From positions 10,668 through 74,667 of the forward strand of contig CAYLKH010000001.1 of NCBI GenBank assembly GCA_964384255.1: DNA of 64,000 nt, given 5' to 3'. Shown here piece after piece: positions 48,205 through 62,826 of the stretch; the stretch's first letter is position 1; every line of letters begins with the position of its first letter. Under the pieces are notes generated by a model. That model was not told the origin of the DNA. It searched no databases and saw only the letters and a program-made list of their open reading frames with translations. The translations under genes and the position numbers were made by a program. Origin of the DNA: an uncultured Oscillospiraceae bacterium. GTDB lineage: Bacteria > Bacillota > Clostridia > Oscillospirales > Oscillospiraceae.

Positions 48205-49890
48205 TCAGTGATTTCTGGGCATGAAGTGAGCGCCGCCCATAACGGGAGTGTCTTCGGACAGGGCGCTGCCTTCGCCGGTGAAGCTTACGGTACACCAGCC
48301 GCCGGGAGAATCGGGTACACGGCCGGGGCCGCGAAGTCCCGCAGGAACGGCATCACCGGTGAGGGTGCCGATACCGGCATCACTGGTATAGGTCATCTGA
48401 GCGCCGTTGACAAGCTCGAGATCAAGGCCGTCGAACTTGCCCACAGCGATGGTGTTGTCCAGAATGACCTTGAATTTGCAGCCACGCTGCAATCCCATAT
48501 CGCCGAAAATGACGGAGTTTTTGATGGTCAGGGTGCATTCGCCGATTTCACCGGGGCGCTCCTCGCCATTGATGCAAACCGCCAGAGCCTGACCGTTGGG
48601 GACGATTAGGTTGCAGTGGTCGAGGACGATATCGCAGTAGCCGCCGTCGACTATGATGGCGCTGCCTTCGGTGGCGACCAGAGTGGTGTCCTTCGCTTCG
48701 AACAGAGCCTTGTTGCCAACGCGGAAACGGACGCGCAGAGCGTTCTTGCCCTTGACAACGCAGTCGTCCAGCTTAATGTGGCCGTCGTTGCAGATGATGG
48801 CGCCTTCGTCGTTAACGGCTTCGAAGTAGCTTTTGCTGAAAACCACGTTGCTGCCGCCGTCGCAGTAGATACCGGCAGAAGCGGGGCCATAGCTGACAGC
48901 GATGGACTTGCTGCCGTCGATATCGGCACCGGGGTTGTCGGTAGCTACGACAGAGCCGTTGTTGCCGGATGTGGTCATATAGGTGTTGTCCACATGGATG
49001 GTGCCGAAGCTGGTGTTGTAAACGCCGTGGCCGAAGCTGGCATCGGAGCGGACGATACAGCCGTCAAGGTCGGCATGACCCTTAAATACAGTAAATACGC
49101 CGTGAGCTGCGTCCAGCTTTTTGTCGCCGGCAACACAGTTGGCAAACATACAGGTGTTTTTCAGGCTGATTTTTGAGCCTTCGCCGGTGGCCAGAACAAC
49201 AGAGTTGACGCCGTTGCTCATGCCGGGACCCGTAAGGCCTTCGGGCTTTTTGTAAGCGCCGTCCACCTTGTCCAGCATACAGCCTTCTACAAATATCTCC
49301 TTACCGCCGCCTTCAAAAATGACGGATTCGTTTTCGGCGGTGGACTGGATGTAGGAATCCTTAACAGTGCGCCCGGAGATATCGCCGCCGTAGACCTTTT
49401 CGTCAATAAGCTTCAGACCGTCCCCATCGCCATAAACGGTGGAAGTAAGAACAGCCATATAAGCTTCGGGCATTTCGGTGGGCAGGGGAGGCATTTCCAT
49501 AGGCTCGCCGCCGGGCATTCCACCGGGCATTCCGCCACCGGGACCGCCGGGACCACCGGGTCCGCCTGCTGCCTTGGCAGCTTCGGCCCGCTGACGCTGC
49601 TGCTCGGCATAGGTTTCCAGAATGGTGTCATCGGGGCCGTTGGGGAGCTTGGCTTCGGGAGCCTCGGGATATCCGCAGATGTTGGGGATGCCTTCGGGCT
49701 TCTGCATTTCGCCGCCACCACCAGGACCGCCAGGACCGCCAGGACCACCGGGCATTCCGCCACCGGGACCACCGGGACCACCGGGCATTCCGCCACCGGG
49801 ACCGCCGGGACCACCGGGCATTCCGCCGCCGGGACCGCCGGGACCACCGGGTCCGCCGCCGCCAAACATACTCAGTTCAGACAGTTTCAT
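48205..49890 (-). CDS. Beta-helix family protein, paralogue P2, with two Gly/Pro/Met cassettes at the N-terminus
   Basis: MKLSELSMFGGGG-(PGGPGGPGGGM)x3..., a helical AEQQRQRAEAAKAA spacer, a second GGPGGPGGPGGGMPGGMPGGEPMEMPP cassette, then rungs such as LKNTCMFANC, LDGCIVRS, LDDCVVKG, LDHCNLIV. ATG 49890 is 8 nt after GGAGG. No signal peptide. Confidence 0.8.
   Translation of the reverse strand: MKLSELSMFGGGGPGGPGGPGGGMPGGPGGPGGGMPGGPGGPGGGMPGGPGGPGGPGGGGEMQKPEGIPNICGYPEAPEAKLPNGPDDTILETYAEQQRQRAEAAKAAGGPGGPGGPGGGMPGGMPGGEPMEMPPLPTEMPEAYMAVLTSTVYGDGDGLKLIDEKVYGGDISGRTVKDSYIQSTAENESVIFEGGGKEIFVEGCMLDKVDGAYKKPEGLTGPGMSNGVNSVVLATGEGSKISLKNTCMFANCVAGDKKLDAAHGVFTVFKGHADLDGCIVRSDASFGHGVYNTSFGTIHVDNTYMTTSGNNGSVVATDNPGADIDGSKSIAVSYGPASAGIYCDGGSNVVFSKSYFEAVNDEGAIICNDGHIKLDDCVVKGKNALRVRFRVGNKALFEAKDTTLVATEGSAIIVDGGYCDIVLDHCNLIVPNGQALAVCINGEERPGEIGECTLTIKNSVIFGDMGLQRGCKFKVILDNTIAVGKFDGLDLELVNGAQMTYTSDAGIGTLTGDAVPAGLRGPGRVPDSPGGWCTVSFTGEGSALSEDTPVMGGAHFMPRNH
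49507..49568. repeat. Gly/Pro/Met-coding low-complexity tract (second cassette of P2)
   Basis: Codes GGPGGPGGPGGGMPGGMPGG on the minus strand. Confidence 0.8.
49711..49866. repeat. Tandem 33-nt repeat x3 plus flanking GGP units (first cassette of P2)
   Basis: GGCATTCC recurs at 49751, 49784 and 49817, a 33-nt period equal to 11 codons (GGPGGPGGGMP). Confidence 0.88.
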
Positions 49891-49952
49891 ATTATTGACC
49901 TCCAATTCATTTCATTTTCTTCAAATCGCAGTTTACACAGATCGATGGAACA

Positions 49953-49981
49953 ATTATATTGCTAAATAATGGAATAGTCAA
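49953..49981 (-). promoter_or_regulatory. Near-consensus sigma-A promoter for P2
   Basis: On the minus strand: TTGACT (49981-49976), 17 nt, TATAAT (49958-49953). Confidence 0.55.
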
Positions 49982-50010
49982 TAATCAACGTGATAATTCC
50001 CGGGGCAAGC

Positions 50011-50045
50011 TCCGGTCCGGCCAGTGGTCATCCGGGTCCCGGCCC
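50011..50045. promoter_or_regulatory. GC-rich direct repeat in the P2 / MerR divergent region, candidate regulator-binding site
   Basis: TCCGGTCCGGCCAG (50011-) and TCCGGGTCCCGGCCCCAG (50031-), starts 20 nt apart, in otherwise AT-rich DNA and about 30 nt upstream of the P2 -35. The second unit contains the palindrome CCGGGTCCCGG. Confidence 0.3.
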
Positions 50046-50152
50046 CAGCTGCTGGCCGGAGGAAATTTGTGGATATTACGCTTTTTTTGCTTATATCTAT
50101 TGACATTACATCTGGTGTATATGCTAATCTAAAGCTGGAAAGGGGGATGACC

Positions 50153-51268
50153 ATGAAGATAAAAGAGGCAGCTGCCATCACCGGACTGGCGGAACGCACG
50201 ATCCGCTTTTATGAAGAAGAGGGGCTGTTTGAACCACGGAAAAAATATTCCAATGGCCGCTACTATCGGGATTATTCCGACGACGATATCCGGGACCTGA
50301 AAACTCTGGCGACACTGCGTCGGGCGGGATTTACCATGGATGAGATACGTCGGATGCAAAACGAAGACGATGTTATTGGCCCAATACTTACTGACCTTGG
50401 CCTGAGACTGGAACGCCAGAAGGGATCGGCCGAGGCTATGGCAAAAATAATCGGTTCTGTCACCGGCGCTGATAAGATGGACATCTACCAGCTTTCCGAC
50501 AGGATAACATCCGGTATCGAAACCGCTCACGCTCCGGATATCCAGCTCAGGTTTGGCAGGATGGACGGAGTGGACGACGCTCAGCGGGCTGCTGAATATG
50601 AGCGCTTCGCCAAAAGACGTGACCGAAAAAGGCCAAATATGGCTGCTGTGCTGGCGGTAATTTTTGGCGTTCTTGCGCTGCTGCTTTCTTTCGCGCTGGC
50701 ATATGTTATAATGGAGCAGCGATATACCGTTCCGCCCGCAGCGGGGCTTACGGCAGATTGGGAATATCGCGTTGACATGGAAGAGGGCAGCGGCCTGCTG
50801 GAGATATATGGCAAAAAGGATGGAGCGGAAAAGCTTATCTACAGCCAGGAGACTGCTTCGGCTTATGCGAACTTTAATTATTTCGTGGGCAGCAGCCACC
50901 TTTATATCTATCTTGAAGATCGCCTGTTTTCCCTCAATGCCGACGGCAGCGGCTATCACAGGATATATTCAAAAAGCGGCAGCACGGCGGTGATACTGGG
51001 AGAATTTGGCCAGAATCTGGTGTTTTATGGCCCCAGCGGCTATGGAAAAAGCCTTATGTACGTTCCTATTGAGGGCGGTCGGGTCAAAAAGCTGCTAAAC
51101 GGCATTAACGGTCAGGTCACGGTGACGAATGACACTGTGTTTGCTCTTGTGAGCGGCAGGGGATATTATGCCGTTGATTTATACAGCCTTGAAAAGCAGG
51201 CGCTGGGCCGCAGAGATCAACAATTGAACGATATTATCAACGACTATTTTCAGGAGGTCGAGCCATGA
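50153..51268 (+). CDS. Membrane-anchored MerR-family regulator with an extracytoplasmic beta-propeller-like (DUF5050-like) domain
   Basis: MKIKEAAAITGLAERTIRFYEEEGLFEP...YYRDYSDDDIRDLKTLATLRRAGFTMDEIRRM (MerR HTH plus start of the coiled coil), one TM (MAAVLAVIFGVLALLLSFALAYVIM), then ~190 aa with HLYIYLEDRLFSLNADGSGYHRIY-type repeats. ATG 50153 is 6 nt after GGGGG. Confidence 0.78.
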   Translation: MKIKEAAAITGLAERTIRFYEEEGLFEPRKKYSNGRYYRDYSDDDIRDLKTLATLRRAGFTMDEIRRMQNEDDVIGPILTDLGLRLERQKGSAEAMAKIIGSVTGADKMDIYQLSDRITSGIETAHAPDIQLRFGRMDGVDDAQRAAEYERFAKRRDRKRPNMAAVLAVIFGVLALLLSFALAYVIMEQRYTVPPAAGLTADWEYRVDMEEGSGLLEIYGKKDGAEKLIYSQETASAYANFNYFVGSSHLYIYLEDRLFSLNADGSGYHRIYSKSGSTAVILGEFGQNLVFYGPSGYGKSLMYVPIEGGRVKKLLNGINGQVTVTNDTVFALVSGRGYYAVDLYSLEKQALGRRDQQLNDIINDYFQEVEP

Positions 51269-51489
51269 ACTTGAATATGAACAATAACTATCAGCAGTCT
51301 CCCAACCAGCCCCATATCAATTATGACGCTGTTGACAAGCTCCAGATGCAGCAGGTGCAGCAGGCTATGGAGTCAAACAGCTTTGGCAAAACCCGGGCGC
51401 GCAAAAAAAGCGGAAACGACTGGAAAACGCTGGTTATCGCCATAGGCATTGTGGCGGTTATAGTCCTGGGGATAATAATTCTGCTGTAA
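51265..51489 (+). CDS. Small Gln/Asn-rich protein with a C-terminal TM anchor
   Basis: 74 aa. ATGA start/stop overlap with the MerR-like gene. KTLVIAIGIVAVIVLGIIILL is the tail anchor. Confidence 0.5.
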   Translation: MNLNMNNNYQQSPNQPHINYDAVDKLQMQQVQQAMESNSFGKTRARKKSGNDWKTLVIAIGIVAVIVLGIIILL

Positions 51490-51495
51490 ATAGCG

Positions 51496-51545
51496 GCAGC
51501 GTGCCGAAAACCATCAGCTGATGGCTCCGGCACGCTGCTTTTTTG
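51496..51545 (+). terminator. Intrinsic terminator
   Basis: GCAGCGTGCCG ... CGGCACGCTGC stem followed by TTTTTT. Confidence 0.6.
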
Positions 51546-51552
51546 CGGCCAT

Positions 51553-51954
51553 TTATCTTGCGGCGGTGCCGCCGGTGGTGCCTTCGTTGCCAACATGGCC
51601 GTCGCTGTCGCTGACAACGCCGTCGTGAGCATCGTTGCCCTTTTCTGCGCCGTCAATGGCTCCGTCCACAGCGCCCTCAACAGCTCCGGCAACTCCACCA
51701 ACAACTCCGTCGACTGCGTCGCCTATGGCGGTCCCGGTGTCGGTCCTGTCGTTTGTGTCAGGAGTGGTTACATTGTCGTCGGCAGGATCGTTGTCAGCGG
51801 GGGTAGTCACGGTGACAGAGGGGGATGGGCTTGCGCTTTCCGATACCTGGGGAGATACGGTGGTGTCGGATCCTTCTTTTTCTTTGCCTGTACAGGCTGA
51901 AAAACCGCACATCATCATGGCGGCAATAATCAGAACTGCGGTGGTTCTTTTCAT
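51553..51954 (-). CDS. Low-complexity lipoprotein
   Basis: MKRTTAVLIIAAMMMCGFSACTG lipobox, followed by a Ser/Thr/Pro/Asp-rich region and then a Gly/Ala/Val/Asp-rich region. Confidence 0.6.
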   Translation of the reverse strand: MKRTTAVLIIAAMMMCGFSACTGKEKEGSDTTVSPQVSESASPSPSVTVTTPADNDPADDNVTTPDTNDRTDTGTAIGDAVDGVVGGVAGAVEGAVDGAIDGAEKGNDAHDGVVSDSDGHVGNEGTTGGTAAR

Positions 51955-52096
51955 TATTGATTCCTCCGGTCGATCTTGTTCGGCAGCTGCCGGTCAGGCG
52001 GTGGTCAGATCCCAGCCGGAGCTGTCCATAATCCTGACCCGCAGTTGCCCTGTGAAAAGTATTATTAGCAGTTATTTAAAAAATATAAAAAACCTC

Positions 52097-52144
52097 TTGC
52101 AATTTATTTAAAATGTGCTAATATAAAAAACAGGAATGATTCTT
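52097..52144 (+). promoter_or_regulatory. Candidate rubrerythrin promoter with a Fur/PerR-like inverted repeat just downstream
   Basis: TTGCAA, 16 nt, TAATAT (TGc extended -10), then AGGAATGATTCTT (52132-52144; GAAT-g-ATTC core palindrome). Confidence 0.35.
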
Positions 52145-52190
52145 ATTTTTGAAATAAACTAAAAATCTGTACTTTTATGGAGGAAACAAT

Positions 52191-52724
52191 ATGGAACTTA
52201 AAGGCAGCAAAACCGAAGCCAATCTGCTTTTTGCATTTGCAGGCGAATCTCAGGCCAGAAATAAATACACTTACTTTGCTTCCGTCGCTAAAAAAGAGGG
52301 CTATGAGCAGATAGCCGCCATTTTCCAGGAAACTGCCGACAACGAAAAAGAACACGCAAAACTGTGGTTCAAGCAGCTGGGCGGCATCGGCGACACCCGT
52401 GCCAACCTCATCGCCGCCGCCGAGGGCGAAAACGAAGAATGGACTTCCATGTATAAAGAATTTGCCGAGGTCGCCAAAGAAGAGGGCTTTGACCACATCG
52501 CTTATCTGTTTTCCGAGGTGGGCAAGATCGAAAAGCACCACGAAGAACGCTATCTGAAACTGGTCGCCAACCTGGACGACGAACTGGTGTTCGCCCGCGG
52601 CGAAGAGCAGATCTGGATCTGCCGCAACTGTGGCCATATCGTCAAGGGCGCTTCCGCACCCAGGATGTGTCCCGTCTGCGCTCATCCCCAGTCTTATTTT
52701 GAACTTTACAGCTCAAATTATTAA
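52191..52724 (+). CDS. rbr: Rubrerythrin
   Basis: MELKGSKTEANLLFAFAGESQARNKYTYFA (ferritin-like diiron ExxH motifs) plus a C-terminal rubredoxin, WICRNCGH...CPVCAHP. Confidence 0.93.
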   Translation: MELKGSKTEANLLFAFAGESQARNKYTYFASVAKKEGYEQIAAIFQETADNEKEHAKLWFKQLGGIGDTRANLIAAAEGENEEWTSMYKEFAEVAKEEGFDHIAYLFSEVGKIEKHHEERYLKLVANLDDELVFARGEEQIWICRNCGHIVKGASAPRMCPVCAHPQSYFELYSSNY

Positions 52725-52738
52725 TTTATCAAACCTTT

Positions 52739-52770
52739 AAGGGCCGCGAGCTAAACTGCTCGCGGCCCTT
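52739..52770. terminator. Bidirectional terminator between rbr and P3
   Basis: AAGGGCCGCGAGC taaact GCTCGCGGCCCTT, a 13-bp stem followed by TTGG. Confidence 0.7.
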
Positions 52771-52832: not shown

Positions 52833-54947
52833 TCAGCCCTTAACGAGGATCTTGCCGGTGTATACCCTGCCGGGTTCCACAGCGACTTCAGCGCCGTCCA
52901 TCAGGACAGTACCCTTGATGGCGCAGCCGGCTTCTACTTCCAGCCTGCTGATAAAGCTGTCGCCAACAGGAGTCCAGACGGAACCGTTCTTCAATGATAC
53001 CCAAACGCCGTTGTTTACGGTGGGAGATGGGGTGTTGCTCAGGTTGCCCAGAAGGGTGGCATCGGCAGAAACGATGTGGCCTTCGTCAGCGGTGAGCTTT
53101 TCGGTGCCGATAACGATGGTCTTGCCGTTGGCGTCCAGCTCGGGAGTGAATGCCCAGGCAGGCTCAGCCATCATCATGGGCATCATGCCGCCCATATCAG
53201 GCATACCGCCCATATCAGGCATACCACCCATATCGGGACCGCCGGGGCCGCCGGGCATACCGCCGCCGGGAGCGCCGCCGCCCATGCCGGGCATCTTGCT
53301 CTTGGGTTTTTCCCAGGTACCCCTGATCTCGTAGCCATCAGCGTTGATGGCGATAGCGCCGTATTCGTTGTCGGCCTTGGCGGTGAAGAAGGAGTATTCG
53401 TCGTGCAGTGCGGTGGAGGAGGAGCAGGCGCCTTCGATCTCGCAGTTGTCGAAGCTGAGAATGAGGTTCTGACCCCACCATTTCATGCCTTCGCCTTCGG
53501 TCTCGACGGTGATGCTGTTGAAGAAATTGCCCTTAAGAGCGGTCTCGCCCCTGCAGTCCTTGAAGCTGGCCTGAACGTCGCCAATAAAGCCGTTGACATC
53601 GAACTTGCGGAAGAAGCTCTGGTTTCTCAGATTGTAGTCATAGGGGTTATACTTGGGATCGGCTTCCACGGGAGCGGAAGTATCCATTTTTTCCTTGAAA
53701 GCGGAGCTGCCCATGCCGGGGTCGTCGCAGACCATCAGCTGAACGATAACGCCCTTTTCGGAATTGAATTTGCTGTTTACGACTTCGATAACAGGAACGC
53801 AGGCCTTGACCAGGAAAGCAGCGCCGTAGGTATTGAAGGTAGAGTCCTTGACCTCGGTAATGCCGCAGGGAGCGAACTGGCCTTCGGTGCCGGGTACCCA
53901 GCGGACGTTGCCGGTCTTGTGGTACATAACGCCGTACTTGGTGGTGACGTTGCAGCCGTCGTACCAGCCTGCGCTGGCGTGTTCGTTGGCCACAACGGCG
54001 GCGTAGGTCATGCCGTACTTTTTGGTGCTGTAGTTATAGTCAACACCGGTATCCTTTAAACCGGCCTTGAGAGCCTTGAAGGCATCGGAATCAGCGGCGT
54101 TGCCTACGGTGCAGCCGTAGAATTTGTTAAAGCAGCCGCCGATGGAATAGGTGGCGTAGCAGCTGGGGTCGGGGGTGCTGTCGGTAGTAACGTCGATAAC
54201 GCTGCCGCGAACGTTCATGTCGATGGAATATGCGCCCCAGTTAACGGTGTCGCCGGTGTCGTCGACAGACAGAACGCCCCAACCATCGGACAGAAGGATA
54301 TCGTTTTCGTAGTTAACGGTAGAGTAGCCGTCGCACATGGTGGCTCTGGCATGACCGTTGGCGCTGATACCCAGCATCCAGGGGCAGCTGGACATACCTT
54401 CGGCAAAGGATTCGTGCCTGGAGCCGTCGGCACGGACGAAGGAGTTCTTAACGGTAACGTTCAGCTTGTCTTCAGCCTTGGTGCCACCGGCAAAAACGCC
54501 GTGACGGACAGCACCGGATGCATCGAAAACATAGCCGTCGGCCACAACGTTGGATTTGCCATAGCAGGCAATACCTGCGCCAAAGCCCTTAAAGTCGTTG
54601 CCGCCGGAGCCGTGGGCGGTCATGGTAAGGCCGCTTACGGTGTAGTCGGTGTCGTTGATCATAACGCCGTTGAAGTGCCGGTTTTCGGATTTGATAACGC
54701 CGCCTTCCAGCTTTGCGCCATCGAAGGAGCCGCCGCTGATGGCGGCGGTAACGGACTGGGACTCGGATACCTTGCCGCCGTCGATAAACAGGGCGGTGCG
54801 ATAGTCGGCGCTGCCTTTGGTCATGCCGCCGTTATACAGGCCGGTTTCGGGAGCGATAGCTCCGGTTTCGTACAAAACGGCGCCAGCGGTGCCTTCGGGG
54901 ACCTCAACGCCGTCTTTAAGCCAGGTGCTGAGCTTTTTAACATCCAT
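52833..54947 (-). CDS. Beta-helix family protein, paralogue P3, with a Met/Gly/Pro cassette near the C-terminus
   Basis: 704 aa with no signal peptide. GGNDFKGFGAGIAC, CPWMLGISANGHARAT, DGWGVLSVDDTGD and LMVCDDPGMG match P1. The cassette KMPGMGGGAPGGGMPGGPGGPDMGGMPDMGGMPDMGGMMPMMM precedes the shared C-terminal module. Confidence 0.8.
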   Translation of the reverse strand: MDVKKLSTWLKDGVEVPEGTAGAVLYETGAIAPETGLYNGGMTKGSADYRTALFIDGGKVSESQSVTAAISGGSFDGAKLEGGVIKSENRHFNGVMINDTDYTVSGLTMTAHGSGGNDFKGFGAGIACYGKSNVVADGYVFDASGAVRHGVFAGGTKAEDKLNVTVKNSFVRADGSRHESFAEGMSSCPWMLGISANGHARATMCDGYSTVNYENDILLSDGWGVLSVDDTGDTVNWGAYSIDMNVRGSVIDVTTDSTPDPSCYATYSIGGCFNKFYGCTVGNAADSDAFKALKAGLKDTGVDYNYSTKKYGMTYAAVVANEHASAGWYDGCNVTTKYGVMYHKTGNVRWVPGTEGQFAPCGITEVKDSTFNTYGAAFLVKACVPVIEVVNSKFNSEKGVIVQLMVCDDPGMGSSAFKEKMDTSAPVEADPKYNPYDYNLRNQSFFRKFDVNGFIGDVQASFKDCRGETALKGNFFNSITVETEGEGMKWWGQNLILSFDNCEIEGACSSSTALHDEYSFFTAKADNEYGAIAINADGYEIRGTWEKPKSKMPGMGGGAPGGGMPGGPGGPDMGGMPDMGGMPDMGGMMPMMMAEPAWAFTPELDANGKTIVIGTEKLTADEGHIVSADATLLGNLSNTPSPTVNNGVWVSLKNGSVWTPVGDSFISRLEVEAGCAIKGTVLMDGAEVAVEPGRVYTGKILVKG
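53168..53300. repeat. Tandem 18-nt repeat (DMGGMP x3) plus Gly/Pro/Met tract in P3
   Basis: CATATCAGGCATACCGCC / CATATCAGGCATACCACC / CATATCGGGACCGCC on the + strand. Confidence 0.85.
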
Positions 54948-54994: not shown

Positions 54995-55023
54995 ATTGTA
55001 TGACAAACCAAAACTGATGTCAA
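54995..55023 (-). promoter_or_regulatory. Near-consensus sigma-A promoter for P3
   Basis: On the minus strand: TTGACA (55023-55018), 17 nt, TACAAT (55000-54995). Confidence 0.55.
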
Positions 55024-55049: not shown

Positions 55050-55862
55050 CTACTTTCCGATGGTTATGGTCAGCACCAGAGCGTCGTCGGTTTCACTGCG
55101 CTGCATATGGGCGCATATGCCTGCATCCTGCATGGTCCGCAGATTATTCTTGACAGAGTTGAGAAAGAATCTTACGTCCTTCAATAGCAGGGTGCGGGTC
55201 TGGCCGGGGGATTTTTCTGCCGATGGGGCAAGCAGCGAATCGATATATTGCTCGGTTTTGGCGACAGTCAGGTCGTTGGCGATAACATATTGCAGCGCCT
55301 GCCAGCGGTCAGCTTCGTCATCGATGCGAAGCAGCGCCCTTGCATGGCGCTCGGAAAGCCCGCTTTCCCGCATGGCCTGCAATATCCGGGGCGAATGCTT
55401 AAGCAGCCTGAGCTTGTTGGCAACGGCAGACTGGGAACGGCCTACTTTGGCGGCGGCCTGCTCCTGACTCAGGCCATATAGCTTCATCAGTCGGGCCAGC
55501 CCCTGAGCCTCCTCGATAAAATCCAGATCCCTGCGTTGAAGATTTTCCACCAGGGCGATCATGCCGGACTGCTGACTGTCCACCGACAGCACGATACATG
55601 GGACATCGCTCAATCCGGCCAGAGCGGCGGCCCTGAGCCTGCGCTCCCCGGCCACCAGCTCATAACCTCCGGACCTTTTTCTTACCGAAAGGGGCTGGAT
55701 GATGCCATAGCTTTTGATGCTGTTGGCCAGCTCCTCCAGGGCCTGACGTTCAAAAATCTTTCGGGGCTGATCCGGATTGGGAGATATGTCCCTGATGGGG
55801 ATATAAACCACGCGATTGTTTTCAAAAAAAGTTCGTCTTCTGAAAGGTTCCATTTGCTCCAC
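55050..55862 (-). CDS. ParB-family protein, Noc-like (nucleoid occlusion type)
   Basis: ISPNPDQPRKIF, GIIQPLSV, YELVAGERRLRAA (ParB box), HTH GLSQEQAAAKVGRSQSAVANKLRLL, LSERHARALL. The C-terminal KDVRFFLNSVKNNLRTMQDAG...LTITIGK resembles the B. subtilis Noc tail. The N-terminal FRRRTFF could be an amphipathic membrane tag. Confidence 0.75.
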   Translation of the reverse strand: MEQMEPFRRRTFFENNRVVYIPIRDISPNPDQPRKIFERQALEELANSIKSYGIIQPLSVRKRSGGYELVAGERRLRAAALAGLSDVPCIVLSVDSQQSGMIALVENLQRRDLDFIEEAQGLARLMKLYGLSQEQAAAKVGRSQSAVANKLRLLKHSPRILQAMRESGLSERHARALLRIDDEADRWQALQYVIANDLTVAKTEQYIDSLLAPSAEKSPGQTRTLLLKDVRFFLNSVKNNLRTMQDAGICAHMQRSETDDALVLTITIGK

Positions 55863-56036: not shown

Positions 56037-58601
56037 ATGGCTACAATAAGAAATACTCTGCTTACCGGTCCCGCCCGGGAAGCCTTCTGCGCCCAGGTGT
56101 CCCGGCTGGCGGCTGCCGAAAGCATGGTCCTGATGAAAAACGAAAACGGACTGCTGCCCCTTGCATCCGACCAGGGGAAATATCCCATAGCCGTTTTCGG
56201 TATTGGGCAGATATATTCGGTCAAGGGCGGCACCGGCTCAGGAGAAGTAAATAATGTCAACAATGTGAACATACTGGAAGGGCTTACTGCCTGCGGATCG
56301 CTGGAGGTCGACCGGCTGGTAGCCTCCAAATACGAAGCCTGGGTGGCTAACCACCCCAAAAAGGAAGCGAACTTCCTTGCGCCCGACGTGTTTTCTCAGG
56401 AAGAAATGCCCCTGAGCATCGTCAATGTTGAGCTGGCTGCTCAGCGTAACAGCGCGGCGGTCATCGTCATTTCCCGGGTCGCCGGTGAAGGGGCTGACAT
56501 GCCCGGAAGCCGGGGAGACTATTTCCTCAGCCCCGGCGAAGAAGACATGATAGACCAGGTCTGCACCCACTTTGAAAACGTTGTGCTGCTGCTGAACACC
56601 TCCGGCGTTATTGATACCTCCTTTATCGACAGCCGTATCGGCGCGGTGCTTTTTACCTCCCTGCCCGGACAGGAGGGGGGACACGCTGTGGCCGACGTGC
56701 TTTGCGGCGCGGTGGTTCCCTCCGGCAAGCTGACCGACAGCTGGACAAAACACATTGAGGACTACCCCTCTTATCGCAATTTCGGCACCGGTAAGAAAAA
56801 CGGCCTTGAGTTCCCTGCCATGGGTCCCGGAGGAAACGGAGGCATGGAGCAGCAGTGCTACATCAACTATGAAGAAAGCATTTTCGTCGGCTATCGCTAT
56901 TTCGATACCTTTGGGGTAGACGTGGCCTTCCCCTTTGGCCACGGACTGTCCTACGCAGACTTTGAGACAACTGACTGCGCCATGGAGGTGGACAGCGGAC
57001 GCATAACCGTCAGGACTACTGTCGCCAACATCAGCGACCGGTATTGCGGCAAGGATGTTCTGGAGGTTTATTTCTCCGCCCCCGACGGAAAGCTGGAAAA
57101 GCCATATCAGGAGCTGGCAGGATTTGCCAAAACCGGTCTGCTGGCTCCCGGCGAGAGCCAGCAGCTCAGCGTGACCTTTGACGTGAACGACATGGCTTCT
57201 TACAGCCAGGAGGATTCCGCATATATCCTTGAAAGCGGGTATTACTATATCCGGGCGGGCAGAAGCTCGAGAGATACCTTTATCGTCGGCGCCGTATACA
57301 TCGACCGCGAGGTCAGGACCCTTACCCTTTCCGGCCGGCTGAAAATGCTCCCCGGCGGCGACTTTAAGGCTGTCAGCAAGCAGGGAGCCATCCCCCTGAC
57401 CTATGACGGCGAGGAGCTTCAGATGGAGGCGGCGCGGAAGATGGCCGTCCGGCTCAGCTCAAAAAGCTTTAAACCCAGGACCGTTCATTACAGGGGCGAA
57501 CCAAAGCTTTGCGCCGCCAGTGAAGGGGAAGGACTCACCCTTGACGACGTAAGAGCGGGAAAATGCACCGTGGCAAATCTGGTGGCTCAGATGACTGTTG
57601 AGGAAATGGCGTCCCTGTGCTGCGGTACCGGCATGGATATGTCTGCCATGCCTGCGGATATATTCGAGAATATGCCAAAGGGCGACGACGGCGAAGCATC
57701 CCACATGGGGGTTGGGGGCATGGATGCGGGAGAACCCAATTCCGTCCCCGGAGCTGCCGGTCAGACCGTTGACATGACCGAAAAATACGGTATCCGTCGT
57801 ATCATTCTGGCCGACGGCCCTGCGGGAGTTCGCATAACCCGTGAGATAAAAGACGACGAGGGCCAGGTGGTCAAACGCCAGAACTGCACTGCCTTCCCGG
57901 TGGGTACCCTTCTGGCTTCCAGCTGGGACACAGAGCTTATTCGTTCTGTTGGCGCTGCCGTCGGCATGGAAATGCTGGAATACAAGATCGACCTGTGGCT
58001 TGCGCCGGGTATGAATATCCATCGCCATCCCTATTGCGGCAGAAACTTTGAATACTATTCCGAAGATCCCCGCCTTGCGGGCGCTGTGGCCGCGGCCATG
58101 ACCGAAGGCGTCCAGTCCCGTGGGGTCGGCGTGACCCTTAAGCATTTTGCCTGCAACAACCAGGAGGATCAGCGCACAAACTCCAACTCTGTCGTTGACC
58201 AGCGGGCGCTGAGAGAGATATATCTCAAGGGCTTTGAGGTGGCGGTCAAAAAGGCATCGCCTATGGCTATCATGACCTCTTATAACGACATTAACGGCGT
58301 TCCTGCTGCGGACAACTACGACCTGTGTACCGCCATAACAAGGGACGAATGGGGCTTCAAGGGCATTATCATGACCGACTGGGGCGGCGGCAATTCCAGC
58401 CCTGCCATAAGCATGTATGCCGGTAACGACATGATCCAGCCCGGCGGACATTCCAGCGTTAGGGCCATAATTGACGGCGTGGAAAGCAGCGACCCTGTTA
58501 CCTCAAAGGGTCAGGCGGCAAAGCAGGTAACCGTTACCCGGGCCATGCTGGAAAGGTCTGTATGCCATATCCTTAATGTTCTGCTCAGATTGCCTGAATA
58601 A
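56037..58601 (+). CDS. Glycoside hydrolase family 3 beta-glucosidase-like enzyme with permuted domain order
   Basis: The GH3 C-terminal alpha/beta sandwich comes first (SMVLMKNENGLLPL...GTGSGEV), then an Fn3-like domain (LEVYFSAPDGKLEKPYQELAGFAKT), then the GH3 N-terminal barrel (GPAGVRI..., KHFACNNQE, SYNDINGVPA, GIIMTDWGG). No signal peptide. Confidence 0.88.
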   Translation: MATIRNTLLTGPAREAFCAQVSRLAAAESMVLMKNENGLLPLASDQGKYPIAVFGIGQIYSVKGGTGSGEVNNVNNVNILEGLTACGSLEVDRLVASKYEAWVANHPKKEANFLAPDVFSQEEMPLSIVNVELAAQRNSAAVIVISRVAGEGADMPGSRGDYFLSPGEEDMIDQVCTHFENVVLLLNTSGVIDTSFIDSRIGAVLFTSLPGQEGGHAVADVLCGAVVPSGKLTDSWTKHIEDYPSYRNFGTGKKNGLEFPAMGPGGNGGMEQQCYINYEESIFVGYRYFDTFGVDVAFPFGHGLSYADFETTDCAMEVDSGRITVRTTVANISDRYCGKDVLEVYFSAPDGKLEKPYQELAGFAKTGLLAPGESQQLSVTFDVNDMASYSQEDSAYILESGYYYIRAGRSSRDTFIVGAVYIDREVRTLTLSGRLKMLPGGDFKAVSKQGAIPLTYDGEELQMEAARKMAVRLSSKSFKPRTVHYRGEPKLCAASEGEGLTLDDVRAGKCTVANLVAQMTVEEMASLCCGTGMDMSAMPADIFENMPKGDDGEASHMGVGGMDAGEPNSVPGAAGQTVDMTEKYGIRRIILADGPAGVRITREIKDDEGQVVKRQNCTAFPVGTLLASSWDTELIRSVGAAVGMEMLEYKIDLWLAPGMNIHRHPYCGRNFEYYSEDPRLAGAVAAAMTEGVQSRGVGVTLKHFACNNQEDQRTNSNSVVDQRALREIYLKGFEVAVKKASPMAIMTSYNDINGVPAADNYDLCTAITRDEWGFKGIIMTDWGGGNSSPAISMYAGNDMIQPGGHSSVRAIIDGVESSDPVTSKGQAAKQVTVTRAMLERSVCHILNVLLRLPE

Positions 58602-58702
58602 CCGCTGACCTGATCGTCGGTTACACGAATCAAATAATCGGCCGCCGGGGTCGGCGAGCCGGGAAAGGACGCTTTTATCAAAAAGCGACAGAATAGATAC
58701 CT

Positions 58703-60091
58703 ATGACTGATAATATCGTTATTGTCGGAGCCGGTCCTGCGGGTATATTTACTGCGGTTGAAATGCTCCGCAAAGGAAGTAAAAAGAAGATAACCATCGT
58801 CGAAAAGGGCAGAGCCGTTGAAAACCGGGTATGCCCCAAGGCAAAAACCGGCAAATGCATGAGCTGCAAGCCCTATTGCCATATCACCACCGGATTTTCC
58901 GGAGCGGGAGCTTTTTCTGACGGTAAGCTTTCCCTGAGCTATGAGGTCGGCGGGGATCTGCCCAGCCTCATTGGCGAAAATCTGGCCCAGGATACTATCG
59001 ACTATGCCGACAAAATTTATCTCGAATTTGGGGCCGACACCCATGTTGAGGGGGTTGGAGATCCGGAGGAGGTAAAAGATATCCGCCGCCGGGCCATCAA
59101 CGCCGGATTGAAGCTGGTGGATTGCCCCATACGCCATATGGGTACCGAAAAGGCTCAGGATATTTATTATCGCATTGAGCAATATCTGGTAGACAACGGC
59201 GTTGAGCTTATTTTTGGATGGGAGTGTACCGACCTTATCCTTGAAAGCGGCTGCTGCAAGGGCGTACGGATCACCAATGGCGGCAACACCCGGGAGCTTT
59301 CTGCTGCCCACACTATCGTGGCTACCGGCCGCAGAGGAGCCGACTGGCTGGAAAAAATATGCGCCGAATATGGTATCGCCCATCAGCCCGGGACCGTGGA
59401 TATCGGCGTCCGGGTCGAGGTGCGCAACGAGATAATGGAAACCGTCAACAAGGTCCTTTATGAATCCAAGCTTATTGGATATCCTCAGCCCTTTAAGAAC
59501 AAGGTCCGCACCTTCTGCCAGAATCCCGGCGGATTTGTCAGCCAGGAAAATTACGACAACGATCTGGCTGTGGTCAACGGACATTCCTTTAAGGACACCA
59601 AGTCCAACAATACCAACCTGGCTATCCTCTGCTCCCACAACTTTGTTTATCCCTTCAATCAGCCTATTGCCTATGCCCAGAAGATCGGCGAGCTGACAAA
59701 TATGCTGGGAGCGGGGCATATTCTGGTCCAGCGCTTTGGGGATATTCTCGACGGAAAACGCACCTGGGAAAAGGAGCTTAGCCAGTCAAACGTCCGGCCC
59801 ACCCTGCCTGATGCCGTGGCCGGTGACATAACCGCCGCCATGCCTTATCGGGCTATGATAAATATTATCAACTTCATCAAGGCTGTGGACCATGTTGTTC
59901 CCGGCTTTGCGGCCAACGAGACTCTGCTGTATTCCCCCGAGCTTAAGTTCTATTCCAACAGGGTGAAGATGGACGAGAACTTCAACACCAATGTTGAAGG
60001 ACTCCACTGCCTTGGCGATTCCAGCGGCTGGACAAGAGGTCTGATGATGGCATCGGTCATGGGCGTGCTTATGGGCCGTAAGCTGGTTTAA
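58703..60091 (+). CDS. FAD-dependent protein (COG2509 family, uncharacterised oxidoreductase)
   Basis: IVIVGAGPAGIFTAVEM dinucleotide fold, GFSGAGAFSDGKL, and C-terminal GLHCLGDSSGWTRGLMMA. Confidence 0.78.
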   Translation: MTDNIVIVGAGPAGIFTAVEMLRKGSKKKITIVEKGRAVENRVCPKAKTGKCMSCKPYCHITTGFSGAGAFSDGKLSLSYEVGGDLPSLIGENLAQDTIDYADKIYLEFGADTHVEGVGDPEEVKDIRRRAINAGLKLVDCPIRHMGTEKAQDIYYRIEQYLVDNGVELIFGWECTDLILESGCCKGVRITNGGNTRELSAAHTIVATGRRGADWLEKICAEYGIAHQPGTVDIGVRVEVRNEIMETVNKVLYESKLIGYPQPFKNKVRTFCQNPGGFVSQENYDNDLAVVNGHSFKDTKSNNTNLAILCSHNFVYPFNQPIAYAQKIGELTNMLGAGHILVQRFGDILDGKRTWEKELSQSNVRPTLPDAVAGDITAAMPYRAMINIINFIKAVDHVVPGFAANETLLYSPELKFYSNRVKMDENFNTNVEGLHCLGDSSGWTRGLMMASVMGVLMGRKLV

Positions 60092-60121
60092 TGTAATCAA
60101 TTTAAGAGTTAAGGTATAGAT

Positions 60122-61330
60122 ATGCTGATAAATAAAGAGGTTGCTGCCCTTTTGGATTATGCTGTCAAAACCAGAAGGGAGCTGCACAAAATACCCGAGG
60201 TGGGTTTTGAGCTTTACAAAACCCACCGGTTCGTTGTGTCCGAGCTGGAAAAGCTTAAGCCTGACGTGCTGGAAACCATGGCGGATACCGGGGTGAAGGC
60301 CGTCTGGTTTGCCCGGGAGCCTGTGGATACCATCGCTTTCCGGGCGGATATGGACGGGCTTAACGTCCTTGAACAGAACGAAACTGACTACGTTTCTTCC
60401 CATGTGGGGAAGATGCATGGCTGCGGCCACGACGGCCACATGACCATGCTGCTGATGCTGGCAAAGCTGGTGGACAGTCACCGGGATCAGCTTAAGAACA
60501 ATGTTGTGCTGCTGTTCCAGCCGGCGGAAGAAGGCTGGGGCGGCGCCGCCGCCATGATAGAAGACGGCGCGCTGGAAGATCCCCGTGTAGACCGCATTTA
60601 TGGCATCCACCTGTGGCCCACTGTCCCCAAGGGCAGGATCGGTATCCGCTGGGGATACATGATGGCCCGCAGCTGCGAATTCGATATTTATGCTCAGGGC
60701 ATCAGCGCTCACGGAGCCAGCCCCCAGATGGGGGTCGATGCCATCGTTGCGGCTGCCGAGCTGATAATCATGCTGCAAAGCGCCATAACCCGGTCGGTAG
60801 ATCCCCATCAGGACGCTTTGTTAACAATAGGCCGCGTTAATGGCGGCAGCGCAAGAAACGTTATTGCCGACCAGGTGGAAATGAATGGGACACTCAGAGT
60901 TTTTTCTTCCGAGGTTTATGACAACCTGATGGCCCGTATCCACGCCATGACCGAAGGAGTGGCCCTTGCCACGGGGGCAAGGTTCAATATTTTCGAGCGG
61001 ATGCAGTATCCCAGCGTTGAAAACCCCCGGCCCATGGTGGAAGACCTTTATACATACACCGGTATGGAGGATATTGTGCTGGTTGAGCCTGCCATGGCGG
61101 CAGAGGATTTTGCCTGTTATCAGCAGAAGGTCCCGGGGATCTTTATGTGGCTGGGTATCCAGGGTGGCAAAAATCAGCAGCCGCTTCACAACTGCCGGTT
61201 CGATTTTGACGAGGACGTTCTGCTGGTGGGGGTCGAGGTTTATAGAAGACTGCTGGGGATATGCCAGCAGGCGGACATATTTGACTGCAAATCACCGAAT
61301 GTGGCAATTGCGGACAGAACAGGCCTGTGA
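60122..61330 (+). CDS. M20D-family amidohydrolase (N-acyl-amino acid / hippurate hydrolase-like)
   Basis: FRADMDGL, HGCGHDGHMTMLL, FQPAEEGWGGA, and GISAHGASPQMGVDAI. Confidence 0.87.
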   Translation: MLINKEVAALLDYAVKTRRELHKIPEVGFELYKTHRFVVSELEKLKPDVLETMADTGVKAVWFAREPVDTIAFRADMDGLNVLEQNETDYVSSHVGKMHGCGHDGHMTMLLMLAKLVDSHRDQLKNNVVLLFQPAEEGWGGAAAMIEDGALEDPRVDRIYGIHLWPTVPKGRIGIRWGYMMARSCEFDIYAQGISAHGASPQMGVDAIVAAAELIIMLQSAITRSVDPHQDALLTIGRVNGGSARNVIADQVEMNGTLRVFSSEVYDNLMARIHAMTEGVALATGARFNIFERMQYPSVENPRPMVEDLYTYTGMEDIVLVEPAMAAEDFACYQQKVPGIFMWLGIQGGKNQQPLHNCRFDFDEDVLLVGVEVYRRLLGICQQADIFDCKSPNVAIADRTGL

Positions 61331-61368
61331 TATGCTGATATAAGTAAATACAGGAAAGGAAATGCGAA

Positions 61369-62826
61369 ATGAAAATAATCGGAATCCCTGACGAAGAATA
61401 TGTCAGAAGCCCTTATGTAAAAATGCAGCCCCATCCCGAAGGCGAAGGCGGACCTGACGGCCCCGGCGGCCCGGGAGGTCCCGGCGGCCCCGGTGGAGAA
61501 GGTGGTCCCGGCGGACCCGGCGGAGAAGGCATGATGATGGAGCAGAAGCCCACCTTTGCCTGCGTGGAGGTCATTGACGGAACCCTTCGGCCCGGTGCCG
61601 AAGAAACGAAGGCGGCTTTCCTGGGCGGCACTGTGACCGCTACCGGGGGCGATATGGTCGAGATCCTGTCCTCCAACAGCTCTGTGGGCGGAGTTTATGT
61701 TTCCGGCGAAGGCAGCGACTTTACTCTTTCAAACGCTGTTATCAGGCTTTCCGGCGAAGGTGCCGGACTTGGTGGAAAAATATCCGGCGCCAGCGTTGAG
61801 GATCATGGCGTGCTTACCCTGAAAAACTGCTTTATCAATATGGACGGCAAGCTGCGCTGCGCCACCTCCTGCGGCGGCAATTCCCTGCTTAAGGTCTATG
61901 ATTCCATGCTGGTGTCCCACGGGGATCCGTGGCCCGTAGACGTAAAAGAGGTCACGTGGGTAATGGGGCCGGGTATGGCGAAGCCCCCTGTTTTCCTCGA
62001 GATCGAGGGCAATATGCGCACCCACTGCACCGTGATGGACTCCGAAAGCTATTTCTATAATTCAACGATCATTGCCGACAGCTGGGCAGCTCTGTCTACC
62101 GATGCCGGTGGCGACAGGGTATATCTTGAAGCTAACGACTGCAAGGTGATCACTACCCGCTCCGGATACGGCACCTATGCCGACACCATGTGCCACTGCG
62201 TCCTGAACCGGTGCGACCTGGAGGTTGCCAACATGGGCGCTATCATCGCAGGCGAGGCAGATGTCAGGTTCCATGATTGCCGGGCAAAATGCGGCAGCTA
62301 TCTGGCGCTTATCCATGTGGTGGGCGGCTCCAACACTCAGGTCAGCGGCCTTGACGTGGTGGGCGGAAATATCCGCACCAGAGACTGCGCCGTTATCGTC
62401 AAGAGCGAAAACGCCGATATCCTGTTTGACGGCGCTGAGGTCAGCTCCCTGGCGGGAGTCCTTGTCCGGTCAAAGATCAACGACGACCCCATGGCCGCAA
62501 AGGTGGGCAGCGACATAGTTTATGGCATCCATGTCAAGCTGCGCAATGTGGACACCGAAAACGATATTATCCATGGGGATACCCAGCGCCGCATGGTGGT
62601 ATATTTTGAAAACTCCAGGCTCAGAGGCGCTATAACCGGCGGCGCTGTCGTCAAAATGGACGAAGGCAGCTTCTGGTTTGCCGACAGGGACTCGGATGTG
62701 GTCCTTATGGGGAACGCAGACACCCAGAATATCGATGCGCCTGCCGGAGTCACTATCTCGGCAAAGGGTGCCGCTGCCGGAGAATTTGCCCTCGCTTCCG
62801 GCGGTGTTTTGAAAGTTACAGAATAA
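61369..62826 (+). CDS. Beta-helix family protein, paralogue P4, with an N-terminal Gly/Pro cassette
   Basis: MKIIGIPDEEYVRSPYVKMQPHPEGEGGPDGPGGPGGPGGPGGEGGPGGPGGEGMMME..., then LKNCFINMDG, DSWAALSTDAGGD, ANDCKVI, LNRCDLEV, FHDCRAKCG, TRDCAVIV rungs. 38 nt after the M20 gene, so possibly co-transcribed. Confidence 0.8.
   Translation: MKIIGIPDEEYVRSPYVKMQPHPEGEGGPDGPGGPGGPGGPGGEGGPGGPGGEGMMMEQKPTFACVEVIDGTLRPGAEETKAAFLGGTVTATGGDMVEILSSNSSVGGVYVSGEGSDFTLSNAVIRLSGEGAGLGGKISGASVEDHGVLTLKNCFINMDGKLRCATSCGGNSLLKVYDSMLVSHGDPWPVDVKEVTWVMGPGMAKPPVFLEIEGNMRTHCTVMDSESYFYNSTIIADSWAALSTDAGGDRVYLEANDCKVITTRSGYGTYADTMCHCVLNRCDLEVANMGAIIAGEADVRFHDCRAKCGSYLALIHVVGGSNTQVSGLDVVGGNIRTRDCAVIVKSENADILFDGAEVSSLAGVLVRSKINDDPMAAKVGSDIVYGIHVKLRNVDTENDIIHGDTQRRMVVYFENSRLRGAITGGAVVKMDEGSFWFADRDSDVVLMGNADTQNIDAPAGVTISAKGAAAGEFALASGGVLKVTE
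61438..61540. repeat. Gly/Pro-coding tract (GGP units) in P4
   Basis: GGCGGACCTGACGGCCCCGGCGGCCCGGGAGGTCCCGGCGGCCCCGGTGGAGAAGGTGGTCCCGGCGGACCCGGCGGAGAAGGCATGATGATG. Confidence 0.85.

Follow-up and report, generated by a model that had tools for sequence, protein, structure and literature searches.

What do four long, unnamed open reading frames (ORFs) scattered over a 64,000-nucleotide stretch of contig CAYLKH010000001.1 from an uncultured Oscillospiraceae bacterium (the window) encode, and where in the cell would their products act? A first-pass annotation, made from the letters of the DNA, had read the four (P1 to P4) as mutually homologous beta-helix proteins and had noted repetitive segments rich in Gly, Pro and Met (cassettes) in three of them. 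All four ORFs are present where it had placed them, and P1, P3, P4 and, remotely, P2 form one unannotated superfamily of right-handed parallel beta-helix proteins with three sub-types, A1 (P1 and P3, ~600-700 amino acids (aa)), A2 (P4, ~470 aa) and a rare third type (P2).

6475..8421, (-) strand: P1, 648 aa, type A1 beta-helix protein without cassette and without export signal
48205..49890, (-) strand: P2, 561 aa, rare divergent third sub-type with two cassettes, without the A1/A2 motif blocks
52833..54947, (-) strand: P3, 704 aa, type A1 beta-helix protein with one cassette
61369..62826, (+) strand: P4, 485 aa, type A2 beta-helix protein

The fold is known and the family is undescribed in every library queried; its members are probably catabolic enzymes, a new family built on an old scaffold.

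Four open reading frames and three sub-types

By sequence comparison P1 and P3 are clear homologues (BLASTP E=1.9e-25, with an additional C-terminal match at 7.6e-11; P3 scores 539.6 bits with the A1 hidden Markov model (HMM)) and P4 is a distant one (6.7e-6 with P1, 1.3e-4 with P3), the A1 and A2 families aligning over 409 columns in a profile-profile comparison (hhalign 100%, E=3.2e-46). P2 is not an equal fourth member. Its BLASTP values are not significant with P1 (0.69) and P3 (0.055) and weak with P4 (0.003), and it is joined to the superfamily remotely, by profile similarity alone, P2 and its orthologues matching the P4 family (98.3%, E=1.6e-14) and the P1/P3 family (94.7%, E=6e-8), the latter match being limited to 179 C-terminal columns. 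The mutual homology proposed for all four is thus clear for P1 and P3, distant for P4 and confined to the profile level for P2. The motif blocks said to be common to them are distributed in much the same way: P1 has the full set; P3 has GGNDF, DGWGVLSVD and LMVCDDPGMG, with a 5-residue gap in its CPWMLG…RAT block; the fit is loose for P4, whose blocks have diverged to leave only DSWAALSTD, SGYG and DDP; and for P2 the claim was wrong, as none of the listed blocks was found in its sequence. Rung motifs of the type x-N/D-C/S/T-x-I/V occur in the window proteins.

The start codon of each of the four is the first possible start or lies no more than five codons from it, which rules out a hidden signal peptide upstream. 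This includes P2, whose ORF had been said to leave no room for one and whose ATG has a Shine-Dalgarno sequence, GGAGG, 8 nt upstream. P1 to P4 show no LPXTG motif, no hydrophobic N-terminal stretch and no membrane segment (maximum Kyte-Doolittle hydropathy over 19 residues <=1.35). Their cysteine content is 2-2.5%.

Fold, distribution and conserved residues

AlphaFold models cover P1 and P4, and for these two the beta-helix fold read from the rung motifs is confirmed by prediction: P1 (51 homologues as input) is modelled at a mean predicted local distance difference test score (pLDDT) of 96.2 and a predicted template modelling score of 0.94, as an all-beta protein with short regular strands, and P4, likewise all-beta, at pLDDT 87.1. 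Foldseek searches of the PDB with these models returned only right-handed beta-helix proteins, namely carbohydrate-active enzymes (CAZymes), adhesins and tailspikes, at template modelling (TM) scores of 0.2-0.36 and E >=5e-4. The best match of P1 was pertactin (E=4.8e-4), in a list that also held GH110, the HK620 tailspike, GH87 and the fucoidan lyase FdlA; for P4 it was AlgG (E=5.8e-3). The alignments to CAZymes (root-mean-square deviation 10-20 Å, TM <=0.36) are too poor for residues to be transferred, and viral models gave generic tailspikes and depolymerases at TM <=0.29.

Sequence libraries place the family nowhere. P1, P3 and P4 match no Pfam-A family at E<=1, and so none of PF13229, NosD (PF05048), Cthe_2159 (PF14262), the pectate lyases or the GH28-type families, while Beta_helix PF13229 reaches 17.9 bits on P2, under its gathering threshold of 25.9. 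The NCBIfam scan gave only noise far under the cut-offs for the window proteins, PHROGs had no match for the four, PDB sequence searches with single sequences and with profiles returned nothing relevant, and an exact-sequence search with P3 found no database record. The literature searched gave nothing on the beta-helix family or on bacterial (GGP)n inserts. Nearly all homologues are named 'hypothetical protein' at source, the exceptions bearing generic labels, and a few homologues carry precomputed PF13229 matches. That no characterised group could be named in the first-pass annotation is therefore borne out, the Foldseek agreement being one of fold only.

Comparison with the better known beta-helix proteins leads to the same view. 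The pectin-lyase-like CAZymes (PL1/PL6/PL9, GH28, GH87, GH110, FdlA, AlgG) share the overall fold of the models and fill the Foldseek lists, and some family homologues likewise lie beside sugar transporters; however, the family resembles them in neither sequence nor profile and carries no signature motif of theirs, its window copies are cytoplasmic by their lack of signals, and the family differs further in its end modules, its cassettes and its neighbours, which are mainly redox enzymes instead of CAZymes. The PF13229 and NosD-CASH proteins share the rung motifs, but PF13229 is a generic repeat model and not a functional family, and it matches few homologues, P2 below threshold and P1, P3 and P4 not at all. 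Cthe_2159 of Clostridium thermocellum is also a Firmicute beta-helix protein, of uncertain catalytic status, but besides the missing Pfam match its structural match is insignificant (4phb, rank 47, E=0.27), and it is secreted and much shorter. The autotransporter passengers (pertactin, Vag8, UpaB), long single-stranded right-handed beta-helices, give the best or high Foldseek matches (TM 0.21-0.36) but belong to proteins with a signal peptide and a C-terminal beta-barrel translocator, neither of which is present in these proteins of a Gram-positive-type host; an autotransporter reading was dropped, as the C-terminus is here a 55-aa end module.

The family is large. A word-indexed search found 116 homologues of P1, all unnamed, and at least 286 of P4, and an exhaustive HMM search with the A1 profile over 1.84 billion cluster representatives found 1,555 clusters at 50% identity at E<=1e-3, 1,124 at <=1e-10 and 618 at <=1e-30. 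A degenerate DNA pattern for PW[VMI]LGxxGxxRxTN run on species-representative genomes yielded at least 119 stretches of 8 kb; together with seven earlier loci, 123 of these 126 loci encode a family member, so the pattern is specific. The 139 family ORFs in the 123 loci come from Firmicutes (many gut and rumen metagenome-assembled genomes (MAGs) of Oscillospiraceae and Lachnospiraceae), Actinomycetota (many Streptomyces, with Nocardioides, Actinoplanes and Microbacterium), Acidobacteriota, Proteobacteria and Chloroflexi, further hosts including Steroidobacteraceae, Pseudoxanthomonas, Hydrogenophaga, Derxia, Oceanobacter and Flexilinea. Cultured anaerobes are represented by Clostridium puniceum DSM 2619, Eubacterium oxidoreducens DSM 3217 and Holophaga foetida DSM 6591. 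An 80%-identical P1 orthologue (locus L003) is labelled Oscillospiraceae/Ruminococcaceae-type. P2-type proteins are rarer: the full-length search, in which the unmasked cassette let low-complexity words swamp the results, gave three true homologues, and a metagenome scan added two loci with uninformative neighbours. Of three genes checked as possible further paralogues, neither the 583-aa one in L003 nor the two large ones in L128 qualified. Some polypeptides (P0242-P0255, 1,100-2,300 aa) contain two to four full tandem copies of A1, a parallel to the adjacent gene pairs described below.

The lack of export signals had been presented as a property of the family, and it holds for all four window copies; it is not a family trait. 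A crude heuristic finds signals in 89 of 206 full-length A1 proteins (~43%) and 17 of 120 A2 proteins (~14%), shares taken from a sample of homologues skewed to relatives of the queries. The signals include Sec, lipobox and twin-arginine (Tat) types (e.g. 'MTLTSRRSFLIAGS…' in Streptomyces), fusion to an SLH domain and a C-terminal membrane anchor, and their bearers occur in Streptomyces, Acidobacteriota, Proteobacteria and Lachnospiraceae. As judged from such N-termini, the family is not intrinsically signal-less and the window copies fall in a large branch that lacks signals. Two loci bear on where that branch would act. One, an apparent operon in Flexilinea, combines two copies lacking signals with genes for an NAD(P)H flavoenzyme, an MFS transporter and a SnoaL_4 protein that has no signal either; in the other, from a deltaproteobacterial MAG, a lipoprotein copy lies amid three lipoprotein SnoaL_4 proteins. 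In both, the compartment of the partners matches that of the beta-helix protein, which argues that the signal-less branch is truly cytoplasmic and that, on these predicted locations, the same scaffold serves on either side of the membrane. Between the lipoprotein SnoaL_4 genes and the lipoprotein beta-helix gene of the deltaproteobacterial MAG lies a gene for a 578-aa UGSC-family protein (PF24696; L031:2729-4465, (+) strand).

What the proteins share beyond the fold is a small set of polar and aromatic residues. Alignment of 199 A1 and 120 A2 sequences to one HMM gives nine positions (P1 numbering) that are conserved in both sub-types.

R223: A1 100%, A2 99%
W245: A1 99%, A2 99%
S249: A1 99%, A2 99%
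D251: A1 92%, A2 93%
Y277: A1 99%, A2 99%
Y280: A1 86%, A2 99%
K381: A1 95%, A2 73%
D410: A1 99%, A2 64%
D411: A1 85%, A2 95%

Conservation spans 64-100% and is mostly above 85%, with its minima at D410 and K381 in A2, and all nine residues are present in P1, P3 and P4. R223, D251 and Y277/Y280, and likewise K381 and D410, lie about one rung (26-29 residues) apart in the sequence, a spacing that would stack them along one face and suggests that the constellation lines one groove. Nine such residues kept in ~320 sequences suggest an active site.

A1 proteins are in addition bracketed by a duplicated module of ~55 residues with the consensus W.V…L..LtI..g..i.AP.Gk..tmTVdG….pGtY.G.IvLtv, the N-terminal and C-terminal profiles matching each other at hhalign 99.7% (E=3.7e-25). 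The C-terminal module is also found in P3 and, in a weak version, in A2. At the other end, P4 opens with a strand motif predicted to dock on the helix body.

8224..8400, (-) strand: P1 N-terminal end module, aa 8-66, a duplicate of the C-terminal module
6481..6672, (-) strand: P1 C-terminal end module, aa 584-647, NNGVIV…W.V.G…L..LtI…TMTVDG…PGTYTG.I.L
61369..61428, (+) strand: P4 N-terminal strand motif, aa 1-20, I.G(I/V)P…Y.R.PY.K

P4 residues 1-20 are modelled at pLDDT 80-88 with a beta-strand at residues 2-4. The motif is found throughout A2, also after the signal peptides of exported members, and is followed by the cassette.

Gly/Pro/Met cassettes

Four of the 50 window ORFs carry cassettes, P2 (two), P3, P4 and a 251-aa protein that is unrelated to the beta-helix family, and Met-rich residues border every one of them, as had been described. 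All are encoded by tandem DNA repeats with periods of 9, 18, 27 or 33.

49702..49872, (-) strand: P2 N-terminal cassette, aa 7-63, GGPGGPGGGMP x3 and more; tandem repeat of period 33 x3.6, 95% matches
49489..49572, (-) strand: P2 internal cassette, aa 107-134
53175..53297, (-) strand: P3 cassette, aa 551-591, including DMGGMP x3, in a loop before the C-terminal end module; period 18 x2.8
61432..61539, (+) strand: P4 cassette and disordered tether, aa 22-57 (cassette by scan aa 25-58), period 9/27, pLDDT <50
25082..25837, (-) strand: 251-aa protein with (GGP)n at aa 145-189; tandem repeat 25292-25389, period 9 x10.9

In the fetched loci cassettes occur in 29 of 141 family ORFs, as against 5 of 702 neighbouring ORFs, and these five include one GroEL GGM tail and one ene-reductase with a (GGP)15 insert. 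The different positions of the window cassettes, first taken for local oddities, turn out to reflect a family-wide trait with a few fixed sites. Of 120 A2 members 80 have a cassette, almost always close to the N-terminus (relative position 0.03-0.28). About 80% of A1 members lack one; the others carry it in the N-terminal region or at a relative position of 0.66-0.85, behind DDPGMG or ahead of the C-terminal module. Orthologues differ in what they carry at a given site. P2 orthologues have their N-terminal cassette at the same site with ~14 to at least 24 GGP units in place of the 3 x 11 residues of P2, and the P2 leader MKLSE(L/I)(S/N)MFGG is conserved in L129, the one orthologue with a complete N-terminus (the contig of L001 opens inside its P2-type repeat and so lacks the leader). 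The internal cassette of P2 has another length in its 91%-identical orthologue P0117, the orthologue P0105 has, where P3 has its cassette, a different one, and among P4 relatives the tether ranges from no cassette to ~70 residues. Assembly artefact, which the first-pass annotation had named as a possible undoing, does not account for the cassettes, because independently assembled orthologues have in-frame cassettes at matching positions, with differing repeat numbers. The cassettes are family-associated spacers, fixed in site, free to vary in length and predicted to be disordered. In P4 the low pLDDT of the cassette together with the confident residues 1-20 fits a short docked strand on a flexible tether.

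Cassette-like segments are also seen in a likely partner protein. A flavoenzyme with Oxidored_FMN and Pyr_redox_2 domains (L005:2930-4954, (+) strand) has (GGP)15 in a loop; it lies two genes upstream of a P1 homologue on the same strand, in a run of solute-binding protein (SBP), OYE-type flavoenzyme, sulfatase and beta-helix (BH) genes. In the window's ene-reductase (4329..6416) Met and Pro are abundant in a stretch at a similar position, and cassettes may thus extend to partner proteins. The 251-aa protein has no Pfam or PHROG match and no relative in the fetched loci.

The likeness of the cassettes to Hsp70 GGMP tails, GroEL GGM tails, Cu(I) motifs and collagen holds for composition only. 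The chaperone tails resemble them in Gly, Met and Pro content and in predicted disorder, but those are C-terminal tails, whereas the cassettes are N-terminal tethers or internal loops dominated by (GGP)n, and nothing points to common descent or shared function. In Plasmodium Hsp70-1 the GGMP repeats are reported to influence the binding of co-chaperones (PMC7926355). As to collagen-like proteins, short pure (GGP)n runs such as that of the 251-aa protein formally fit Gly-X-Y but the 11-residue unit of P2 and the DMGGMP unit of P3 break the register, and a collagen-like reading was dropped; nothing tested supports metal binding, and a copper-binding reading was dropped, most family members having no cassette.

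The repeats also affect gene calling. Long spurious ORFs (poly-PPG, or poly-PVV/PAV) overlap the cassettes in other frames or on the other strand at 49413..49969 and 61413..61676 (both strands), so that cassette regions are prone to mis-annotation by gene callers, and the orthologue contig L001 breaks inside its repeat.

Gene neighbourhoods and candidate functions

Neighbouring ORFs of all fetched loci were clustered and their labels checked by Pfam; the counts that follow are raw counts within those loci. A second family member lies nearby in 14 of the 119 genome stretches, eight of these being A2+A1 pairs. Ene-reductase-like flavoenzymes (Oxidored_FMN+Pyr_redox_2) number 17 genes in 15 loci and are the most frequent neighbour class among low-GC genomes (9 of 210 neighbour ORFs >=150 aa), SDR being the top class by locus count overall. 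Large SBP_bac_1 lipoproteins are neighbours in nine loci, and SnoaL_4, small glyoxalase-fold proteins, MFS/ABC transporters and LysR-like, AraC and two-component regulators also recur. The order of genes is OYE–MFS–SnoaL_4–BH–BH in the apparent operon of Flexilinea, MFS–BH(A2)–glyoxalase–BH(A1)–SBP–His kinase in Lachnospiraceae, OYE / LysR-like / BH(A2)–BH(A1) in C. puniceum and SBP–OYE–sulfatase–BH in a metagenome contig with a 47%-identical P1 homologue; in one locus a monosaccharide-type ABC transporter comes after the gene of an exported P3-type protein. About ten Streptomyces loci (L013, L015, L024, L033, L057, L064, L075, L090, L103, L122) contain parts of a run FAH–two-domain glyoxalase/dioxygenase-fold–Histidinol_dh-like–SDR–BH, complete in L103 only and partial in the other 8-kb stretches, in which the beta-helix protein is Tat-signalled where its N-terminus can be read and to which a divergent Amidohydro_2 gene is added in some loci. 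An unannotated family of ~460-535 aa (cluster c17; L106:3034-6957, (-) strand; L023:6176-7564, (+) strand) recurs beside beta-helix genes; it is Tat-signalled in Acidobacteriota, and one member has a small Gly/Pro/Met stretch.

Around P1 the window has the gene set found around the P1 orthologue in the 80%-identical relative L003 (Tct, ene-reductase, SBP), and near-consensus promoter matches precede P1, P2 and P3, with hairpins behind P1 and P2.

3..752, (-) strand: SBP_bac_1-type solute-binding lipoprotein fragment, cut by the window edge; tblastn with neighbour cluster c3, E=1.3e-23
1266..4250, (+) strand: TctB, TctA and TctC genes of a tripartite carboxylate transporter, upstream of the ene-reductase; the same genes are Pfam TctA/B/C in L003
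4329..6416, (+) strand: flavin ene-reductase-like gene beside P1, Pfam Oxidored_FMN + Pyr_redox_2
6431..6466, (-) strand: P1 terminator-like hairpin, 15-bp stem and then a T run
8458..8486, (-) strand: P1 promoter match, TTGACA-17-TATATT with an upstream TG, 11/12 positions, a consensus match only
48163..48196, (-) strand: P2 terminator-like hairpin, 15-bp stem and then a T run
49953..49981, (-) strand: P2 promoter match, TTGACT-17-TATAAT, 11/12 positions
54995..55023, (-) strand: P3 promoter match, TTGACA-17-TACAAT, 11/12 positions

The promoters proposed for P1, P2 and P3 are each borne out as sigma-70-like consensus matches, at 11 of 12 positions. P4 starts 38 nt after an M20 peptidase gene, with which it is therefore probably co-transcribed. 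P2, P3 and P4 lie within 15 kb, interleaved with genes for BTAD/SARP-like, MerR, rubrerythrin, ParB, GH3, FAD and M20 peptidase proteins. The interleaving first reported is real, the SARP-like, MerR, GntR and ParB regulators being confirmed by Pfam and rubrerythrin read from its translation; these genes do not recur beside homologues elsewhere, and the idea that the regulators and the family form one system was dropped for that reason. Three of the interleaved genes have features of their own. The GH3 glycosidase between P3 and P4 (56037..58601, (+) strand) has no signal peptide and is permuted, Glyco_hydro_3_C and an Fn3-like domain coming first and the catalytic domain last. The MerR-family regulator (50024..51268, (+) strand; helix-turn-helix at aa 44-113) is unusual in being membrane-tethered: it also contains a membrane segment and a C-terminal domain (~170 aa) that matches nothing in Pfam. 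The ParB/Noc-like gene (55050..55862, (-) strand; ParB_N + HTH_ParB), located between P3 and GH3, stands alone, as no adjacent gene encodes ParA.

We propose, at a probability of about 0.45, that the proteins are enzymes with a groove-type active site whose substrate is a carbohydrate, uronate or glycoconjugate of plant origin taken up by the cell, and that they work before or in parallel with ene-reductase, NTF2-like and glyoxalase-fold enzymes. The conserved constellation would line the groove and constitute the active site; its Asp/Asp-Asp/Arg/Lys/Tyr composition is of the type used by beta-helix lyases, hydrolases and epimerases (GH28, PL1/6/9), and the activity would be of one of these kinds, on a carbohydrate, a uronate or another plant-derived organic substrate. 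In the window organism the substrate would be imported and then processed in the cytoplasm, with uptake by TctABC, SBP_bac_1 or MFS systems and with flavin ene-reductases, SnoaL_4 (NTF2-like) and glyoxalase-fold proteins as partners, often of an A2+A1 pair. The cassettes would be flexible spacers: those of P4, and probably of P2, would hold a short conserved N-terminal strand that folds back to dock on the helix body, and those of A1 proteins would loop out close to one end of the helix.

Several observations weigh against this proposal. The searches made linked the family to no characterised enzyme by sequence or structure, and the catalytic motifs of GH28, PL1, PL6, PL9 and AlgG cannot be recognised in it; the gathering of the conserved residues in one groove is deduced from their spacing only; and P2 lacks the nine-residue constellation altogether. 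The neighbourhoods are heterogeneous and indicate no single substrate: anaerobes have ene-reductase and NTF2-like genes, Streptomyces has dioxygenase-like, FAH, HisD and SDR genes and one locus has a sugar ABC transporter. Moreover, 38 of the 57 low-GC loci have none of the recurrent partners in their 8-kb stretches. P2 and P3 look monocistronic, with promoter matches of their own, and their immediate neighbours (MerR, rubrerythrin, ParB, GH3) do not recur at other loci. The skew of the homologue sample, noted above for the export-signal shares, counts here too.

It is unlikely that the proteins are instead non-catalytic, structural, binding or scaffold elements that provide a rigid surface or self-associate, their end modules and N-terminal strands serving head-to-tail or strand-swapped assembly and their loops acting as steric caps or entropic bristles. 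The adhesin pertactin as the top match of P1, the identical modules at both ends, the tethered strand docking on the body of the P4 model, the frequency of two- to four-copy fusions and adjacent pairs and the lack of a recognisable catalytic motif all agree with such a role. Near-invariant R, D, DD, K, S and Y over ~320 sequences at 25-30% identity are, however, more typical of a catalytic or ligand-binding site, and the family shares its operons with metabolic enzymes and transporters instead of genes for a cytoskeleton or for surface assembly.

A bolder version of the enzymatic proposal, decidedly unlikely as it stands, would join the A2+A1 pair with ene-reductase, SnoaL_4 and glyoxalase-fold proteins in a new catabolic module for a plant-derived substrate, for example an unsaturated uronate or a polyphenol or terpenoid glycoconjugate, deployed inside or outside the cell by lineage, in which the Gly/Pro/Met segments are themselves functional, capturing hydrophobic or phenolic ligands as proline-rich proteins do or tethering terminal strands that protomers swap in hetero-oligomers.

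That the window proteins reach the outside without a signal, by non-classical export or as a mother-cell-made spore coat or exosporium layer like the signal-less collagen-like exosporium proteins, is improbable. The exported share of the sampled family is sizeable (the ~43% of A1 and ~14% of A2 given above), as an Oscillospiraceae-type Firmicute the host belongs among bacteria many of which form spores, and (GGP)n formally satisfies Gly-X-Y; their cysteine content and promoter matches of the vegetative sigma-70 type nevertheless argue otherwise, as do the 11-residue repeat, which breaks triple-helix periodicity in a cassette predicted to be disordered, the Flexilinea members, which lack signals and share an operon with an MFS importer, a cytoplasmic NAD(P)H flavoenzyme and a SnoaL_4 protein likewise without a signal, and the matching of lipoprotein SnoaL_4 with lipoprotein beta-helix proteins.

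It is quite improbable that they are diverged ordinary members of a characterised glycoside hydrolase or polysaccharide lyase family. The fold, the Foldseek neighbours (GH110, GH87, PL6, FdlA, AlgG) and the GH3 gene between P3 and P4 are what such an origin would leave, but P1, P3 and P4 have no Pfam or NCBIfam match at E<=1, PDB profile searches gave nothing relevant, structural matches stay at TM <=0.36 and E >=5e-4 and database names at 'hypothetical protein'. Were it so, the result would be a useful annotation and not new biology.

Very improbable is a role in Cu(I)/Ag(I) handling or as chaperone-like proteins with the Met-rich cassettes as the functional element, to which the Met-rich borders of every cassette, the MerR-family regulator between P2 and P3 and the Tat signals of some exported relatives might point: P1 and ~80% of A1 keep the conserved core without a cassette, cassette length and sequence vary freely among close orthologues, the His/Cys/Met motifs of known copper sites are absent from cassettes that are mostly Gly and Pro, and no copper-resistance or chaperone genes recur near family members in the fetched loci. 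An origin as prophage tailspike or depolymerase remnants, the viral Foldseek list notwithstanding, is hardly credible and was dropped, as the matches are generic to the fold (TM <=0.29), no PHROG matches, no phage genes lie nearby in the window or related loci and the family is chromosomally conserved with metabolic neighbours.

Mechanistically nothing surprising has emerged as yet, and the fold is an ordinary one. Undescribed, as far as checked, are the family itself and its conserved site, its use on two sides of the membrane, the pairing of A2 with A1 and the association with cassettes. More than 1,000 clusters at 50% identity, from Oscillospiraceae and Lachnospiraceae of gut and rumen as well as Streptomyces, Acidobacteriota and Proteobacteria, stand without a Pfam, NCBIfam or PDB anchor. 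The specific affinity of the family for disordered (GGP)n and Met-rich inserts makes it a natural system for how repeat proteins tolerate or use tandem-repeat spacers. Moreover the confident fold, the sharply conserved putative active site and the reproducible operon partners make it a well-defined target for enzyme discovery, one that bears on the turnover of plant matter and xenobiotics by gut and soil bacteria.

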